A DNA stretch of 36,917 bases from a virus (taxonomy: Duplodnaviria > Heunggongvirae > Uroviricota > Caudoviricetes): IMG/VR virus record IMGVR_UViG_2711768076_000013. One strand, given 5' to 3'. Position numbers and translations under genes: made by a program. The notes beneath the pieces are model-generated. The model did no database searches. It was not told the origin of the DNA and saw only the letters and a list, made by a program, of their open reading frames with translations. Below are positions 1 to 33,843 of the stretch, piece after piece. Positions within the stretch are counted from its first letter, which is position 1. Each line of letters opens with the position of its first letter.

Positions 1-1032
1 TCAAAAACTTGCTATTGATGTTGGTAGTGTTGCCAGCGGATTAAACCGTAATGCAGTTTCCAGGTGATCCGGTGCCAGATGTGCGTAACGCATAGTCATT
101 TTTATATCGTGATGCCCGAGAATTTTTTGTAAGGCCAGGATATTTCCACCCGACATCATGAAGTGCGCCGCAAACGTATGGCGCAGAACGTGTGTCAGTT
201 GACCGCGAGGGAGCACGATAGACGTTTTTTCCATCACGGATAAAAATTGAAAATAGCAGTCTGTAAAGAAATTGAACCCATCAAGCGCCATGATCTCTTC
301 GTAAAGCTCTTTACTGATAGGGATGCTTCTGTTTTTCTTCCCCTTCGTTCTTACAAAGGTAATTCGGTATTTGGTCACCTGTGAGCGGGTAAGATTTACG
401 GCTTCACGCCAACGTGCGCCTGTGCTTAAGCATATCTTAACTACCAGTGCCAGAATTGGGTCCTGACGTTTGCAATCAGCCAGCAATTCAACAATCTGCT
501 CATGGGTAAGCCATGCCATCTCTTTTTCTGCGATGGTGAATTTTCGCATGTTCTCCAGTGGGTTTGGATACGACCATTCGCCCAGGCGGGATAGTTCGCT
601 AAAAACACTACTTAGATAGCTTTGCTCCAGGTTAATGGTGACCGGGCTGGCTCCTTTCTTCCATTTCTCGCTGAAGTAGATCTCACCTGTCAGGCGTTTA
701 TCTCGATAGTGGGCAAACATTTTAGAGGTGAGATCGGTTGCAAGGGGATTGCCCAGAGCGTCAACCATCAGCAGCAATTTGTCATAGACATGCTGCCCAG
801 CAGTCAGAGATTTACCATGTAGTTTGAACCATAGTTCAACCACGTCTTTCAGTGTTCGACGATCCACTGATTCACCCAGCCAGGGCTTTGCTTCGGTTTC
901 TTCCATCGTGTGGCGCTCAAAAGCCAGAGCTTCGCCTTTGGTGGCGAATTGTTTACGCACACGACGCCCACTGCGTCCGGCGGGGTAACATTCGCAAAGC
1001 CATTTTCCTGTGGTGAGTTTTCGTACTGCCAT
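1..1032 (-). CDS. int: Tyrosine site-specific integrase (P2/186 family)
   Basis: 343-aa ORF ending at window position 1; C-terminal catalytic region HVLRHTFAAHFMM...GHHDIKMTMRYAHL fits the R..HxxR..Y tyrosine recombinase pattern; sits next to the repressor as in P2/186 phages. Confidence 0.9.
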   Translation of the reverse strand: MAVRKLTTGKWLCECYPAGRSGRRVRKQFATKGEALAFERHTMEETEAKPWLGESVDRRTLKDVVELWFKLHGKSLTAGQHVYDKLLLMVDALGNPLATDLTSKMFAHYRDKRLTGEIYFSEKWKKGASPVTINLEQSYLSSVFSELSRLGEWSYPNPLENMRKFTIAEKEMAWLTHEQIVELLADCKRQDPILALVVKICLSTGARWREAVNLTRSQVTKYRITFVRTKGKKNRSIPISKELYEEIMALDGFNFFTDCYFQFLSVMEKTSIVLPRGQLTHVLRHTFAAHFMMSGGNILALQKILGHHDIKMTMRYAHLAPDHLETALRFNPLATLPTSIASF

Positions 1033-1110
1033 AAAAAATGCCCTCCAGTGGAGAGCATTTTTACTGTATGTATAACCAGTGTCAATGTATGATGCTTGAG
1101 GTTACATACA

Positions 1111-1482
1111 TCATAAGTACCGATATGATTGCGGGGCCGTTATGTTATCACCTAATGAACTTAGATGAAGCGGTTGATCATAGATTTTTAGATTGCCAAT
1201 TTCTATAGCAAAGGCTTTTTCTTTGCTATGAAAATATGAGTCAAAAAATTGTTTGCTGATACCTGCGTATTGGCTTGTTTTTTCCCATACAATACTTGGC
1301 TTGTCTTCTATAACATCTGCAATGTCAAATTCAGCAACAACTTTACCGACAGGCATTGTTGAATAAATAACCACAGATTTTACATCCGGTTTTTTGAAAA
1401 TTCCTTTTCGGAATTCAAATTTCTTTGTTCCATTAAGGATTTTTTCTACATGCTCTGGGTTAATTGACAATAATACTTTCAT
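1111..1482 (-). CDS. ASCH-domain (PUA-like) protein, last gene of cargo cassette
   Basis: Start taken at MKVLLSINPEHVEKILNGTKKFEFRK (the ORF track extends to 1494); this N-terminus resembles the ASCH fold of E. coli YqfB as recalled. AT-rich. Overlaps the stop of the upstream gene, so likely translationally coupled. Confidence 0.5.
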   Translation of the reverse strand: MKVLLSINPEHVEKILNGTKKFEFRKGIFKKPDVKSVVIYSTMPVGKVVAEFDIADVIEDKPSIVWEKTSQYAGISKQFFDSYFHSKEKAFAIEIGNLKIYDQPLHLSSLGDNITAPQSYRYL

Positions 1483-2530
1483 TGACGCCACCAAGTTTAA
1501 TAATGCTATTAAACTGTTCGTTTGTTAACTTCATGATCCCCCAGTAAGCTCGCGGGGATAATCCTACTTCAGAAATAAGTTTAGCACGATTTAGTCTTTT
1601 GGGCAAAGCAAGGTTATATGTAAAGCTTATAATATATGGGTATTTTTTTGTTCTATAAAAACTTTTAAGCTCAGATTCTGTAAAAACAGAATATCTAGAA
1701 CAGTAATTTAGAAATTCTTTCTCTGTAACGAAAGAGTTTATATTTCTAACTTTTTCTACTACACATAAAGAAGTAGCAACAGAACGGTAATATGCAGGCC
1801 CTTGATTATCGGATGTTCGGTATATAACGATTATATCGTTTGGCTTCATTAATTCAACATCTGACATGCCACAAATATATACTTTTCTAATGCTATTTGC
1901 ATATGATACATCAGCAACAACGTCTGGTGACTCTGTAATTAATTTTGAGTCAGGGAATAAACGAGTATGAAATACGGGGTATATTGAAAGCAAGAATTTA
2001 TTTTCACTGCCTCTGTTATTAATAAATGGATAATCTGACAGTATATCGCCAGTAAGAGCATTACTATTCATTTCTTTTATTAGTACTCGCTCTACACCAT
2101 TTTGAGATTCTTTTACTCCAATATCTATAAAGCCATAGATTTTGAATAGTCTAATTAAGTAGTCATGTTTTTCAAAAACAGTCACATATATATTGTTAGC
2201 ATTATTATCTAGAGCGTGATCGAATATTTTTTTTAAAAATCGTTGACCACGAAGAGTTCCTTTTGGATTAAATTTAAATGTTCCAACTTTTAGATGAATA
2301 CCATCAGGAATATTTGGTTTTGTATCTTCAATGATACCCACTTCTGTTTTTAGATACAAAAAACCATCAATTTTATTTTGTTCATCATAAAGGACATATG
2401 CATAATCATTTGATTTACATTTAGAATGGAACCAATCAATAAACCCATGAGCATAATCGGATTTTAAAGAGTCAAAAAAAACATCAGAAAAATCTACTTG
2501 ATTAAAAGGTATGTATTTTAAGTTTTCCAT
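1460..2530 (-). CDS. GNAT-like acetyltransferase-fold protein with extra C-terminal domain (cargo)
   Basis: 356-aa ORF. The segment NIYVTVFEKHDYLIRLFKIYGFIDIG resembles GNAT motif B and GTLRGQRFLKKIF lies where motif A would be. Very AT-rich. Start codon 2 nt from the stop of the upstream gene. Confidence 0.45.
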   Translation of the reverse strand: MENLKYIPFNQVDFSDVFFDSLKSDYAHGFIDWFHSKCKSNDYAYVLYDEQNKIDGFLYLKTEVGIIEDTKPNIPDGIHLKVGTFKFNPKGTLRGQRFLKKIFDHALDNNANNIYVTVFEKHDYLIRLFKIYGFIDIGVKESQNGVERVLIKEMNSNALTGDILSDYPFINNRGSENKFLLSIYPVFHTRLFPDSKLITESPDVVADVSYANSIRKVYICGMSDVELMKPNDIIVIYRTSDNQGPAYYRSVATSLCVVEKVRNINSFVTEKEFLNYCSRYSVFTESELKSFYRTKKYPYIISFTYNLALPKRLNRAKLISEVGLSPRAYWGIMKLTNEQFNSIIKLGGVNESIIVN

Positions 2531-2532
2531 GT

Positions 2533-3315
2533 TTACAATCCTATTTTAAAATCACATGATAAGCAAATTGATTTAGTTTTAGATATGACGGCGAGTGTTT
2601 TCCCCGGAGTTTGACAATTAGTACAAACATTCCAATTTTTCGGTTTTCCATCAATCTTATATATGTTGGCTAAAATATCATCTAAAGGAAAAAATGTTTT
2701 CATCATGTCTATAATGCTTGCTGCATAGTTTTTCTTTGCCTCGACTAATTTTTGTTCAGGCATGTTTTTATCATTTATCAAGCAATGAACCAGGTTATTA
2801 AGAGGCTCTTGATATATCTCCTCTCGAAAAATTAGAAATGCACTTAAAAAGTCTTTACGTATTTCTTTATTATTACTTTTACCTAAGTGAATTACTTTAT
2901 TTCTTTCTTTGCGCAAAATATCATAAATTTCATTAAAGCGCGGTGAAAGATTTCGCCCACTGATACTTTGTGCTATTCTATGTAGCTCGGTTGCGTCTAA
3001 TGTTGAACATTCGAAAAATGATTTGTTTTTATAGCAGTCTTTTACTTCTTTTAAAAGTAAATAAACACTATGCTCAGCAATTATAGACTTTAGATATATT
3101 TCAGCAGAATTAAAGAGTATTACCAAGCCAGATTGAAAGAAACTCTCTTTTTCGGATATTAAGCGTTTCAGTCGTTGTTCTTCTGTTTCAGGTTGAGCTG
3201 GGGCTTGCAATAACTCAATGTCAGAATAAAAATGTAAGTAGAATGTTTTAATGAAAAACTCAAGGTTCCTTTTGGCATAAAGAAGCATCTCTTCATTGTT
3301 AGGAAGGTCTGTCAT
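2533..3315 (-). CDS. Hypothetical protein with HEPN-like R-N-x3-H motif and C-terminal CxxC..CxxC zinc ribbon (cargo)
   Basis: 260-aa ORF. Contains ERNKVIH (Rx4H with N after R, as in HEPN RNases) and a C-terminal CTNCQ...CLSCD. AT-rich. Its ATG directly abuts the cI stop (TAAATG on the coding strand). Confidence 0.4.
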   Translation of the reverse strand: MTDLPNNEEMLLYAKRNLEFFIKTFYLHFYSDIELLQAPAQPETEEQRLKRLISEKESFFQSGLVILFNSAEIYLKSIIAEHSVYLLLKEVKDCYKNKSFFECSTLDATELHRIAQSISGRNLSPRFNEIYDILRKERNKVIHLGKSNNKEIRKDFLSAFLIFREEIYQEPLNNLVHCLINDKNMPEQKLVEAKKNYAASIIDMMKTFFPLDDILANIYKIDGKPKNWNVCTNCQTPGKTLAVISKTKSICLSCDFKIGL

Positions 3316-4272
3316 TTAAATATCCTTATATATACCAAAACATTTTGCTATTACATTAATATCCGCTAATAGACATTCAAAAGTTGTACTTTCATTAGAT
3401 ACTTTTACTTTTGCAATTGGAATTCTGGTTAGATCTCTAACACTAAATTTTCCTTCGATTTCAACTAACCATTTTCCATCGGTTACTTCATCAAATGCTT
3501 TGTCTGCAAGATATACATTTCCTTCATCTACTATAGATATGGGGTTTTTCACCTTGCTGGGTAACATGGTTTTATCAAAAGGGAGATAATTTGTATCAAA
3601 CAACATACCATTTATAACTTTTTTCCGTGTGATAGCAATAATATCGCTCTTAGCGTCTTCAAAGACAGGACCATTACCGGTTGTTAGCCACATTAATGAA
3701 GCTCCGGTTTCAAGTGCGCACTGGATGATCCAATCAGCTGGAAAGGTATCTCTCATGTAACGATTGGCTAATGTGCTTTTTGAAACACCAATGTGATCCG
3801 CTAGAGCTTGCCTTGTCTTAAATCCATAGGCGATAACTATTCGCTCGATTGCCGCTTTTCCTCCTTGATTAACCTCAATGAGGCTCTCGTTCTTTCGGTG
3901 AGTATTGTTCTCATTTGGGGATTTTGTGTCTAAAGTGAGAGAATGAATCTCCTTACCATCTTTATGGTGGTTCTGTTCTGTATTATGTGTGACAGCCTCT
4001 ACTGTGTTATCGGTACCAAATGCCAACCATTCAACCGACACGCCAGTTTCCATGCTGCAGATTATGACCCAGTCGGCAGGGAAGGTATCACGAGCATATC
4101 TGTTCGCCATTGTGCTTTGGGATATCCCTAAGTGGTTACAGAATGCTTGACGTGAAGTGAAGCCATAAGCTTTCAAAATTCGGTCAATGACCTGTTGCCC
4201 TCCACGATTCTGCATGATTACAGTTTTCATTGCATCATCAACATGGCGAAATGTGATTTTGTGTGTTGACAT
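3316..4272 (-). CDS. cI: CI-type immunity repressor with two tandem N-terminal HTH domains
   Basis: 318 aa. Two diverged copies of a phage CI-repressor HTH (ILKAYGFTSRQAFCNHLGISQSTMANRYARDTFPADW and IVIAYGFKTRQALADHIGVSKSTLANRYMRDTFPADW), then a C-terminal domain resembling phage 186 CI as recalled. Divergent from the apl-like gene. Confidence 0.8.
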   Translation of the reverse strand: MSTHKITFRHVDDAMKTVIMQNRGGQQVIDRILKAYGFTSRQAFCNHLGISQSTMANRYARDTFPADWVIICSMETGVSVEWLAFGTDNTVEAVTHNTEQNHHKDGKEIHSLTLDTKSPNENNTHRKNESLIEVNQGGKAAIERIVIAYGFKTRQALADHIGVSKSTLANRYMRDTFPADWIIQCALETGASLMWLTTGNGPVFEDAKSDIIAITRKKVINGMLFDTNYLPFDKTMLPSKVKNPISIVDEGNVYLADKAFDEVTDGKWLVEIEGKFSVRDLTRIPIAKVKVSNESTTFECLLADINVIAKCFGIYKDI

Positions 4273-4360
4273 ATCCGTTTTGTGATCCTATTCTCCGATT
4301 TGTGAAGTTGAAGTCACGATTAAAACCTGCTTATCACAAGACAATAGGAGATGTTGCATC
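4266..4360. promoter_or_regulatory. Lysis-lysogeny switch region (divergent/convergent promoters and operator repeats)
   Basis: TTGACA at 4266..4271 and TATTCT at 4289..4294 with 17-bp spacing. TTGTGA-type motifs occur at 4279..4285 and 4299..4305 (direct) and 4333..4339 (inverted). Lies between the cI start and the apl start. Confidence 0.4.
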
Positions 4361-4582
4361 ATGACCCCTAACATTTCAATAACTCTGAATACGCCACACG
4401 TCACAATTGAGCGTTATAGCGAACTTACTGGTCTTTCGATCGACACAATCAACGATATGCTGGCTGATGGTCGCATCCCTCGGCATCGTCTCCGTAAAGA
4501 CAAGAAAAGAGAAAAGGTAATGATCAACCTTGCTGCTCTTACCGTTGATGCACTGACTGATTGCAATGTTGTATTCAACTAG
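4361..4582 (+). CDS. Apl/Cox-like excisionase and transcriptional regulator
   Basis: 73-aa ORF with AGGAG 10 nt upstream; small basic protein in the position of 186 apl / P2 cox, first gene of the rightward early operon. Confidence 0.7.
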
Positions 4583-9522: not shown

Positions 9523-9542
9523 TACTGTAAATATAAACAGTG
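9523..9542 (+). promoter_or_regulatory. LexA operator (SOS box)
   Basis: TACTGTAAATATAAACAGTG is a perfect CTGT-N8-ACAG with AT-rich spacer, about 40 bp upstream of the small ORF at 9584. Confidence 0.75.
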
Positions 9543-9583
9543 GTTATGCATACAGCATTGCGTGTGGTGTCATAGGAGGAAAG

Positions 9584-9772
9584 ATGCAGGACTATTTTTT
9601 GGAGTCTTTGAAGCTCCAGCGCATTGATTTTTTTCTTAAGCTTGTAGCGGCTAGTGAGTGTAGTGATGAAGAGAAGGGGCTGGCTCTGCAGTGGGTTTCT
9701 GAATTGACTGATGAACTCATGGCAAAAATCAGAACCCACGAATACAACCGCTCAATGGATGTCATCAGCTGA
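9584..9772 (+). CDS. Small SOS-regulated protein (possible Tum-like antirepressor module component)
   Basis: 62-aa ORF with GGAGG before ATG 9584, directly downstream of the SOS box and upstream of the DinI-like gene. Confidence 0.4.
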   Translation: MQDYFLESLKLQRIDFFLKLVAASECSDEEKGLALQWVSELTDELMAKIRTHEYNRSMDVIS

Positions 9773-9782
9773 GGTGACTTTT

Positions 9783-10016
9783 ATGCGCATTGAAATAATG
9801 ATCGATAAAGAGCAGAAGATTAGCCAGTCTACCCTGGACGCCCTTGAATCCGAGCTTTACCGCAATCTGCGCCCCCTGTATCCCAAAACGGTAATTCGCA
9901 TTCGCAAAGGTAGCTCTAACGGTGTGGAACTAACCGGACTGCAACTGGACGAAGAAAGAAAACAAGTGATGAAAATTATGCAGAAGGTGTGGGAAGACGA
10001 CAGCTGGCTGCATTAA
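9783..10016 (+). CDS. DinI-like protein
   Basis: MRIEIMIDKEQKISQSTLDALESELYRNLRPLYPKTVIRIRKGSSNGVELTGL...WEDDSWL resembles E. coli DinI as recalled (MRIEV..., C-terminal W-E-x-x-D-W). Confidence 0.75.
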   Translation: MRIEIMIDKEQKISQSTLDALESELYRNLRPLYPKTVIRIRKGSSNGVELTGLQLDEERKQVMKIMQKVWEDDSWLH

Positions 10017-10176: not shown

Positions 10177-10220
10177 CGTAGATCATGCAGGTGCATGAAA
10201 ACCACTACATAAAGCGGGCA

Positions 10221-10239
10221 GGCGTGGCGGGGATACGAG
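10221..10239. other. Candidate cos cohesive-end sequence
   Basis: GGCGTGGCGGGGATACGAG; the first 13 nt match the 186/P2 cohesive-end sequence as recalled (GGCGTGGCGGGGAAAGCAT). Location between the replication region and the packaging genes is as expected. Confidence 0.4.
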
Positions 10240-10270
10240 CGCGCGCTCATTACTTTTATAATTCTAGGGT

Positions 10271-10276
10271 TATAAT
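10271..10276 (+). promoter_or_regulatory. Putative -10 element for the KAP NTPase gene
   Basis: Perfect TATAAT 29 nt upstream of ATG 10305, followed by AGGAG at 10293..10297. Confidence 0.35.
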
Positions 10277-10304
10277 ACGGGGCTGTCTTTCTAGGAGAAA
10301 ACAC

Positions 10305-11957
10305 ATGTCCTTAGAGTTTATCAAAGAACAGTTGTCAGATTTTATCTCATCTACAGAACCAGAAGTAATGGCTATACAGGGTGAATGGGGAATTGGTAAA
10401 ACCTATACTTGGAATACGTTCCTAAAAGATAATAAAGATAAGGTTGCATTTAATAGATATAGTTATGTCTCTCTTTTTGGTATAAATTCACTAGATTCTT
10501 TAAAGTATTCTATTTTTGAGAATGCAATTACAAAGGAATATATTGGAAATAAACCTGATTTGGAGACAGCAACAACAAACGCAAGTGGACTTTTTGAATC
10601 ATTTTCTCGAAAAGCAGCAGGTTTGTTAAAAGAAGTTCCTGTTGTAAAAAACTTCTCTACGACACTTGAAGCAATGTCATTTCTGACCGTTTCTAAAATG
10701 ATTGTAGTAATAGATGACTTAGAAAGGCGTGGCAAAAATTTAGATGTTAAAGATGTTTTAGGGCTAGTATCTCTATTAAAAGAGCAGAAGGATTGTAAGG
10801 TGGTTCTATTGCTTAACAATGGCACAGCTAGTATGGAGGATTATTCTACTTATAAAGAAAAGGTCATTGATAGAGATATCACTTACAATCCAACACCAGA
10901 AGAATGCGCAGATATAGCCTATAAAGGTGATTCTCATGTTTATAACTTGTTAAGTAAATATTCCATTTCTTTAGGTATCAAGAATATTCGAATCTTAAAA
11001 AAGATAGAACGTTTTTTCGTGTCCTTAATACCAAATATTATAGGTGATGTTGAGACAATTTCAAATGAAGTTGCGCATTCATTAACTCTGTATTGTTGGA
11101 GCCATTACGGATTTTCTCCAGAGGGAGATGTGCCATCACTAGAATATATTAGGGGAGTGAGGAATATATATACTTATAATGACAAGGAAGAAGGCCATGA
11201 GAAAATCTGGCTTAATACCTTGCTTAAATATGGATATAGAAAAACGAATGATCTTGATGAGGTTCTTATTGATATGGTTAGATATGGCTATCTTGATAAG
11301 AGCAGTTTCCAAAGACAAATAAGCCTAAGGAATGAGGAGATTACGCGTGATAATAAACGAGGTTCCTTATCTGAGGCATGGCAGTTCTTTCATAATTCAT
11401 TTGATGACAATCAAAATCAGGTTGTTGACAAGCTATATCAAGCGGTGGTTGATGGGATGAAGTATGTGACTCCAAGTGATTTAGATAATGTTGTCGGACT
11501 ATATAGGGATTTCGGAGAGAATGCTAAGGCGAGTGAATTGATTGAACAGTTTATTAATTATGGTAACGATGCTCTAAAGGAATATGTTCAATCTATTTAT
11601 GTGAATGTTCATCCCGTAAGAGATACTGAGTTGTTGTCAAAAATTCAAGCCTATTCTAAGATTATAAATATTGATGGTTCAATATATGATGTTCTTAAGA
11701 AATTATCAGGTCAGAATGGTTGGTCTGATAGACATGAGGAAATATTGGATGCTGCTTCAGTAGATGACTACTATCAATTATTTAAAAATGTCATTCTTGA
11801 TGGTGGTGATTCAATAATAGCTACGGCGCTTAAATTCGGAAATTTTAGTAATGGTTCTGATAGAATGAATCGTATAGGGAAAAAGGCAAGGGATGCCTTG
11901 ATAAGAATTGGAGATGAATCGGCGATTAATAAAATGCGTGTAAGGCGATTTTTGTGA
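10305..11957 (+). CDS. KAP-family P-loop NTPase (candidate anti-phage or abortive-infection protein)
   Basis: Walker A in QGEWGIGKTYTW and Walker B-like MIVVIDDLERRG, the KAP-family signatures. Strongly AT-rich compared with flanking phage genes. Sits at the P2 tin/old hotspot position between gene A and the portal gene. Confidence 0.7.
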   Translation: MSLEFIKEQLSDFISSTEPEVMAIQGEWGIGKTYTWNTFLKDNKDKVAFNRYSYVSLFGINSLDSLKYSIFENAITKEYIGNKPDLETATTNASGLFESFSRKAAGLLKEVPVVKNFSTTLEAMSFLTVSKMIVVIDDLERRGKNLDVKDVLGLVSLLKEQKDCKVVLLLNNGTASMEDYSTYKEKVIDRDITYNPTPEECADIAYKGDSHVYNLLSKYSISLGIKNIRILKKIERFFVSLIPNIIGDVETISNEVAHSLTLYCWSHYGFSPEGDVPSLEYIRGVRNIYTYNDKEEGHEKIWLNTLLKYGYRKTNDLDEVLIDMVRYGYLDKSSFQRQISLRNEEITRDNKRGSLSEAWQFFHNSFDDNQNQVVDKLYQAVVDGMKYVTPSDLDNVVGLYRDFGENAKASELIEQFINYGNDALKEYVQSIYVNVHPVRDTELLSKIQAYSKIINIDGSIYDVLKKLSGQNGWSDRHEEILDAASVDDYYQLFKNVILDGGDSIIATALKFGNFSNGSDRMNRIGKKARDALIRIGDESAINKMRVRRFL

Positions 11958-33753: not shown

Positions 33754-33843
33754 TTCTTCGCAATGGAGAACTTTTAAGTTTGCAAAATGGAATAATGCGG
33801 TATCATTATTGTGAATTTAGCAAAAATGGGGAGAACTCGAAAA

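Follow-up and report, generated by a model that had tools for sequence, protein, structure and literature searches.

Phage immunity is usually seen as the work of one repressor with one specificity. Among the 186/P2-like phages the reference protein is CI of coliphage 186 (192 amino acids (aa); 2FJR, 2FKD), whose gene stands at the head of a cI-int operon facing apl-cII. The canonical 186-type CI family has one N-terminal helix-turn-helix (HTH) domain plus a C-terminal domain (CTD) for oligomerization in a chain of 187-209 aa. The three pR operators of 186 lie two DNA turns apart (PMC3675496), and defence hotspots between cI and int are known in P2-related phages, where variable, AT-rich anti-phage cargo is exchanged by recombination (PMC9122126, PMC13586616). 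Here we analyze the cI gene at 3316..4272 (minus strand) of a 36,917-nucleotide stretch of viral DNA (IMG/VR record IMGVR_UViG_2711768076_000013; hereafter the window). This gene encodes two HTH domains in a single chain of 318 aa, and its product is probably a bivalent, bispecific repressor.

Repressor heads have been joined covalently in the engineered single-chain repressors sc-434 and sc-Arc, in which short linkers hold both heads on one operator. In POU-type factors of eukaryotes, which are monomeric and have no oligomerizing wheel, a flexible linker joins two HTH modules that differ in specificity; the CI of the window resembles them in its two linked and putatively distinct HTH specificities, although the proteins are not homologous as units. 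The lambda-186 hybrid repressor, a crystallized laboratory construct with a heterologous head on the 186 CTD (7JVT), indicates that the modules of these proteins are interchangeable. Unlike sc-434, sc-Arc and the hybrid, the combination in the window is natural, has a long tether and keeps the native head.

A CI repressor with two HTH domains

The window is a 186/P2-like (Peduoviridae) prophage of E. coli inserted beside rcdA/ybjJ, and its cI matches strain ExPEC XM at 100% identity. In order, its genes are int (1-1032, minus strand), three cargo genes (1111-3315, minus strand), cI (stop codon at 3316-3318) and, running rightwards, apl (4361-4582), cII, fil, dam and replication gene A, a layout shared with 186 except for the cargo between cI and int. 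RefSeq names the product of the 318-aa open reading frame (ORF) 'phage repressor protein CI'. Its divergent partner is an apl/cox-like gene of 73 aa (4361..4582, plus strand), and one and the same Apl protein (WP_000188448.1) is encoded by prophages that have a one-HTH CI and by others that have a two-HTH CI.

Pfam places Phage_CI_repr (PF07022) on the chain in two stretches (E 9.6e-58) and Phage_CI_C (PF16452) at residues 214-312 (E 6.7e-31), the same domains as in 186 CI, and phmmer matches it to 2FJR at 3.4e-31. The initial annotation of this DNA had described a single protein about 120 aa longer than 186 CI with two CI-type HTH domains, homologous but diverged. Both points hold, the excess being 126 aa, and the ORF is intact. 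It had also placed the two domains correctly, at residues 30-90 and 140-200, but the phmmer limits are slightly wider (24-90 and 137-203). The protein contains both the N-terminal HTH and the C-terminal oligomerization domain that mark the 186-type CI family and departs from its one-HTH canon in domain number and length; it is a variant architecture inside this family.

We divided the chain into five segments, all on the minus strand. The N-terminal arm (residues 1-23, MSTHKITFRHVDDAMKTVIMQNR; 4204..4272) is followed by the first HTH, D1 (residues 24-88; 4009..4203), with recognition helix ISQSTMANRY, and by a low-complexity linker that is predicted to be disordered (residues 89-136; 3865..4008). 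The second HTH, D2 (residues 137-203, best Pfam stretch 140-203; 3664..3864), has recognition helix VSKSTLANRY and leads into the AT-rich 186-type CTD (residues 204-318; 3319..3663). Some copies of the gene are given a start at M20 by PGAP. M1 is the likelier start because residues 1-23 are conserved in 32 homologues (M1, T7, F8, R9, H10 and K16 are invariant or nearly so) and also in single-HTH CIs with a long N-terminal arm. The ratio of nonsynonymous to synonymous substitution rates (dN/dS) of the arm is 0.25-0.49, and a helix at residues 13-21 is predicted with low to medium confidence.

An AlphaFold2 (AF2) monomer model built on a 90-sequence alignment has five confident helices in each HTH (block-mean pLDDT 79-94 for D1 and 88-95 for D2) and a confident CTD, joined by a linker of pLDDT ~33 (residues 89-135), with an overall pTM of 0.48. 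The protein is thus modeled as three beads on a string whose mutual arrangement is not fixed. By Foldseek, the modeled CTD superimposes on the wheel-forming CTD of 186 (2FKD) with a TM score of 0.92 and a root-mean-square deviation of 1.3 A over 109 columns. One source mentions S24 in its automatic name for the protein; a Pfam scan of CI at E <= 0.1 did not find the Peptidase S24 family, and the similarity of the model to LexA is distant and limited to fold (Foldseek TM about 0.3-0.6).

Different immunity types as sources of the two heads

Aligned in register, D1 and D2 are 57% identical in protein and DNA alike, and BLASTP aligns the N-terminal 120 aa with the rest of CI over 77 aa at 53% identity (E 4e-32). 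Synonymous sites are saturated between them; identity at third codon positions is down to 31%, so the two copies are old. A recent tandem duplication in place was rejected on this ground and because D2 groups with single-HTH CIs and D1 with another type.

The closest relatives of D2 are found in a common 198-aa single-HTH CI, here called S-type (e.g. WP_000107903.1, from a prophage of E. coli MS8345). D2 and CTD together align with it end to end, the segment ahead of D2 being the counterpart of its residues 5-18. Identity between D2 and S-type HTHs is 81-84% (84% for the MS8345 protein), CTD identity reaches 72%, and S-type prophages share with the window an identical Apl, an identical pB region and, at the Enterobacter roggenkampii locus encoding P0035, the same cargo; they differ in lacking D1 and in a 16-bp palindrome at pR. 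The relatives of D1 are long-arm single-HTH CIs of 206-209 aa, such as that of Klebsiella phage ST13-OXA48phi12.1, which share the N-terminal arm, an HTH 76-81% identical to D1 and the motif TGTGAW at pR, and differ from the window in Apl type, in CTD and in having one HTH.

Across two-HTH proteins at least four kinds of D1 can be told apart (mutual identity 52-64%), and close single-HTH counterparts (76-82%) were found for three of the four. Two loci, L028 and L030, carry the same two kinds of head in opposite order (cross-position identity 73-76% vs 60-61% at equal positions), with operator regions that differ in line with the swapped order. These comparisons show, at the level of sequence, that D1 and D2 come from different immunity types and that heterologous heads were fused, not plainly duplicated; they also show, on the same footing, that the architecture was assembled repeatedly, as modules, from different kinds of head. 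The term 'internally duplicated' in the initial annotation is accordingly misleading: D2 plus CTD corresponds to a whole single-HTH CI, and D1 to a fused head of a different immunity type, of which there are at least four kinds.

Selection on both heads and spread of the architecture

To estimate selection we compared CI with five orthologues, for which synonymous sites are near saturation. The proportion of nonsynonymous differences (pN) in D1 and D2 is 0.03-0.14; for D1 it is 0.03-0.11 against a synonymous proportion (pS) of 0.65-0.86. Wherever dS could be estimated, dN/dS is ~0.015-0.07 for D1 and D2 (~0.04-0.07 for D2). Amino-acid identity to the orthologues falls to 27-44% in the CTD and 7-20% in the linker, where clear constraint was not seen. 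In the recognition helices, Q52, M55, A60 and R61 of D1 and S164, S166, T167, A169, R171 and Y172 of D2 are invariant in 32 two-HTH proteins. Both heads are intact, well folded and under strong purifying selection; judged by evolutionary criteria, they are functional.

Of the 120 best homologue clusters, 47 consist of two-HTH proteins; their sources are Escherichia, Klebsiella, Citrobacter, Enterobacter, Salmonella, Kosakonia and Edwardsiella. Among 5426 complete E. coli genomes, 219 contain the apl-D1-linker-D2 stretch to at least 80%, and the identical cI gene is present in 28 of the complete genomes of this species. Deposited phages of Klebsiella, 4LV2017 among them, share the architecture. 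Searching 1.84 billion cluster representatives adds two-HTH relatives at ~31-38% identity. The possibility, raised by the initial annotation, that two HTHs are simply standard for the family is correct for a sizeable subfamily, but the canonical family has one. We found no published description of two-HTH 186-type repressors, within a literature coverage that is incomplete; the two-head architecture appears to be recurrent, non-canonical and so far uncharacterized.

Truncated two-HTH cI genes of 229 and 237 aa, which end soon after D2 and lack the CTD, occur in Dryocola sp. BD586 (L006; P0049) and at L047, probably in decaying prophages. A weak match of 484 aa (P0247) has five tandem Xre-like HTH repeats without a CI CTD, a different kind of multi-HTH protein.

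Switch region and candidate operators

A consensus scan identified a pR-like early promoter (TTGACA, 17 nt, TATTCT; 10/12 matches) at 4266..4294 on the plus strand, with its −35 hexamer overlapping the cI start codon, the placement seen at pR of 186. Over this promoter lie two copies, 20 bp apart, of the exact 12-mer TCCGNTTTGTGA, which has no further copy in the window. They mark two candidate operators on the plus strand, O1 (ATATCCGTTTTGTGAT; 4271..4286), conserved in two-HTH loci, and O2 (TTCTCCGATTTGTGAA; 4291..4306), which covers the −10 and +1 of pR. Their spacing of two helical turns is that of the 186 operators, and their sequences differ from those of 186. TGTGAW motifs spaced ~20 bp apart form one pair in the window, where 0.07 would be expected.

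The flanks of O2, TTCTCCG and TGTGAW, are kept in type I two-HTH loci around a variable center of 3 nt, and the same signature is found in two long-arm single-HTH phages (L010 and L012). TGTGAW occurs near pR in 14/15 type I two-HTH loci and 4/4 long-arm single-HTH loci vs 0/18 S-type loci. S-type loci have their own mark: all 18 non-redundant loci carry the 16-bp palindrome GTACCCAATTGGGTAC, or a variant of it, just downstream of the −10 of pR, and this palindrome is similar to the 186 pR operator TCTCAATTGGGAGA. It is absent from all 23 two-HTH loci and from every part of the window, and a search of the window for 186-like TCAC-N-GTGA sites returned nothing relevant outside pR. In types III and IV, the operator regions of two-HTH loci are like those of single-HTH phages with the matching D1-type head. 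From these signatures we infer that the operators beside cI go with D1.

The apl-proximal half of the switch (4313..4360; GTCACGATTA ... ATCACAAGAC ... ribosome-binding site) is shared by the window and S-type prophages in an alignment of the intergenic regions. Its identity between loci correlates with that of D2 (Spearman 0.50) and Apl (0.68) and negatively with that of D1 (−0.32). It may contain weak CI sites, Apl sites or pL elements, and, as 186 has weak CI sites over pL (PMC3675496), it could by analogy be the place where D2 acts in cis.

Several other candidate elements were set aside. An inverted repeat GTGA-N8-TCAC (4302-4317) is doubtful as a rigid operator, since relatives differ in its spacer (N7 to N9) and one-HTH phages have its right arm as well. 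The element TTCCATTTTGAGAT at the apl-cII junction is kept in all immunity types and is thus uninformative as an immunity-specific 'FR' site. The pB region, the promoter region of the late activator, considered as a means of separating the roles of D1 and D2, is identical across three immunity types: window positions 33754-33843, between gene D and the ogr/B late activator, are 100% identical to L032, L115 and L114, the prophages compared having three types of repressor. If CI controls pB as in 186, the site must be readable by all head types.

The first 15 codons of S-type cI are near-invariant in DNA across several genera, with only codon 8 alternating between AAT and AGT (first 45 nt compared in L022, L016, L007, L008, L009, L017 and L018). 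They contain GTACCCAAATGAGATC, which is similar to the pR palindrome, and on this resemblance an operator probably lies inside the 5′ end of S-type cI. The two-HTH locus L029 keeps this 5′-end element ~300 nt into its cI. We considered an intragenic D2-type operator in the DNA for the arm before D2; it is plausible in L029 and L005 and degenerate in the window.

A proposed bispecific repressor and its alternatives

The explanation that we favor as a whole, and judge somewhat probable, is that CI of the window is the functional resident immunity repressor of this 186/P2-like prophage, built as head 1 (D1), a flexible tether and then a complete single-HTH 186-type CI comprising head 2 (D2) and a wheel-forming CTD. 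The protein would oligomerize through its CTD as 186 CI does, with the wheel assigned by analogy. D1, on its tether of ~47 residues, would bind candidate O1 and O2, spanning −35, −10 and +1, and shut pR. D2 would be an intact S-type head with a second DNA specificity whose cognate palindrome is missing from the prophage, and its targets would be weaker sites within the switch's apl-proximal half, incoming S-type phages in trans, or both. The predicted outcome is an asymmetric, extended, one-way immunity. Sequence comparisons show the architecture, the selection on it, its origin and the mosaic junction; bispecificity is probable, and which head reads which operator, the wheel and cross-immunity are what we infer. 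The extra N-terminal HTH, with its putative second specificity, and the 47-aa tether are departures from 186, and the 7JVT construct supports the modularity of the 186 CTD that the proposal draws on.

Certain observations weigh against this bispecific repressor. All operator assignments are sequence analogies, and a close single-HTH counterpart of the type II D1 was not found in the sample. Across all dual-single pairs, similarity of the cI-proximal operator region follows D1 identity weakly (Spearman 0.10-0.15), and among pairs that share an Apl type it even goes with D2 (0.21), since type I and S-type loci have switch regions whose first ~32 nt are of common descent. Since such global correlations of operator and head similarity are weak and confounded by shared ancestry, we set them aside and used categorical signatures. 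The shared pB cannot tell the roles of the heads apart, and all heads may share a generic site.

In one alternative, D2 is the working head for the prophage's own switch and D1 is an accessory, for example a tethered decoy or sensor for a Tum-like antirepressor or a booster of affinity. D2 plus CTD is a complete canonical CI, the apl-proximal half and the first ~32 nt resemble S-type phages and track D2 identity, and an SOS-controlled Tum-like module is present; yet the palindrome universal at S-type pR is missing from all two-HTH loci, the type III and IV operator regions go with phages that have a D1-type head, and the D1 recognition helix is invariant, which together leave this alternative unlikely, if worth keeping in view. 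The initial annotation had suggested a single-chain pseudo-dimer, in which a single polypeptide would fill both half-sites of an operator with its D1 and D2, in place of the normal CI dimer. Two homologous heads per chain and the asymmetric look of O1 and O2 (TCCG left, TGTGA right) agree with this. The identical asymmetry of O2 in long-arm phages, whose single HTH is D1-like and which have no D2, does not; nor do a disordered, hypervariable linker of ~47 residues, an AF2 model without fixed D1-D2 packing, the free swapping of D1 kinds over similar D2s, even with reversal of domain order, or the retention of a dimerizing, oligomerizing CTD. We therefore consider a pseudo-dimer distinctly unlikely.

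The missing cognate palindrome in cis, and a fusion history that makes D2 a passenger at its origin, could also mean that D2 is a relic without a DNA-binding role, kept because the CTD needs it for folding or for wheel geometry. This is very unlikely given the invariance of solvent-exposed residues in the D2 recognition helix and its low dN/dS, and given that the 186 CTD has been solved both alone (2FKD) and fused to a heterologous lambda head (7JVT). An artefact, whether a frameshift or assembly error merging two genes or a long ORF that is not translated from M1, would fit the M20 start that PGAP gives some copies. We rejected a frameshift, an assembly error and a pair of separate genes on the strength of 28 identical genomes, the two-HTH clusters of several genera, and a reading frame kept across them by purifying selection despite saturated synonymous divergence; in addition, inspection of the linker revealed no in-frame ATG from which a separate D2-CTD product could start. 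The chance of an artefact is practically negligible, and the sequencing error that the initial annotation had named as its own possible undoing is excluded.

If the bispecific repressor is real, it offers phages a simple route to new immunity types, in which head and operators are swapped and the old repressor body is kept, and a route to asymmetric cross-immunity between competing prophages. It would also be a natural template for multi-input repressors in synthetic biology.

A mosaic junction and exchange of the CTD with defence cargo

The initial annotation had noted an AT-rich 3′ part of cI resembling the cargo and had offered, as an alternative, a recombinant junction; the first is borne out and the second supported. 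GC content is 0.437 up to the end of D2 (0.415 at third codon positions, GC3), drops to 0.319 in the CTD (GC3 0.203) and is 0.307 in the next 1 kb of cargo. The CTD is lower in GC than the rest of cI in 25/25 loci compared; the gradient is a family trait that is merely strong in the window.

By BLASTN end points and GC profile the junction lies at 3628..3702, at the D2/CTD boundary. Other two-HTH prophages of E. coli and Klebsiella are 85-93% identical to the window in DNA that runs from the early genes across apl, switch, D1, linker and D2; the similarity ends at this boundary (window positions 3628 for L002, 3698 for L020, and 3702 for L021 and L003) and returns at about 1090 in int. On the other side, the E. 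roggenkampii prophage with the single-HTH CI P0035 is colinear with the window at 78% over 21-3852, covering int, three cargo genes, CTD and D2, and its CTD is 72% identical. The same three cargo genes follow related CTDs at L025 (Enterobacter) and at L030, where the heads are different. Among 81 non-redundant loci, mean CTD identity is 0.72 for pairs with a homologous downstream gene vs 0.34 otherwise, a large effect, although the pairs are not independent. From these alignments the drop in GC is shown to mark a real mosaic junction, across which the CTD was exchanged together with the downstream defence cargo. The start codon of the first cargo gene directly abuts the cI stop, so that homologous exchange has its closest conserved DNA in the HTH-coding segment and takes the divergent CTD with it.

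In the cargo trio (1111..3315, minus strand), PADLOC assigns PDC-M11A (356 aa; 1460-2530; E 2.4e-130) and PDC-M11B/ASCH (127 aa; 1111-1494; E 4.9e-48) to the candidate defence system PDC-M11; the remaining protein, of 260 aa and encoded next to cI, has a weak DUF3644 match. As in other P2-like hotspots the cargo between cI and int is AT-rich and variable, but in the window the exchanged block includes the repressor CTD. Since the hotspot exchanges part of the repressor gene itself, turnover of defence cargo is coupled to repressor evolution.

Two-HTH cI genes as cargo behind another cI

Some genomes have an entire two-HTH cI among their cargo, a further difference from the described hotspots. 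In these, a resident 189-aa single-HTH cI that belongs to a different immunity type has, 50 nt downstream of it, a type I two-HTH cI of 307 aa; a KAP nucleoside triphosphatase (NTPase) gene and int come next. This tandem arrangement is found at L044 (2875-4424), L048 and L116 and in 17 of the 5426 complete E. coli genomes, including the enteropathogenic E. coli (EPEC) strain E2348/69 (NC_011601.1, 855092-856252). The gap between the two genes contains what is left, in truncated form, of a small gene usually found behind the 189-aa cI, and no promoter/operator region precedes the second cI in the tandem loci. As it is promoterless cargo in a lysogenic operon, its position suggests that the downstream cI acts in trans on other phages as an extra immunity.

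A broader generalization, which we put forward tentatively and regard as possible but less than probable, is that bispecific repressors arise when the head of one immunity type is stacked on the complete repressor of another. The new head would run the phage's own switch and the retained head would repress the ancestral, common type, making one-way cross-immunity an anti-phage weapon. Such repressors would have arisen several times, and the product could be mobilized as cargo in the cI-int hotspot of a third type, as in EPEC E2348/69.

SOS module and a second hotspot

A perfect LexA box, CTGTAAATATAAACAG, lies at 9525-9540, upstream of a 62-aa ORF (MQDYFLESL...) and a 77-aa DinI-like ORF (9525-10016 with the box). 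Together they resemble, in split form, the Tum antirepressor module that SOS induces in 186; this putative SOS-controlled Tum/DinI-like module is a further likeness to 186 (PMC3675496, PMC7708051). On this sequence evidence the prophage is probably SOS-inducible without cleavage of its repressor.

A 590-aa ORF at 10185-11957 occupies a second hotspot of the P2 type, between the replication gene and the portal side, and its sequence suggests a P-loop or KAP-like NTPase.

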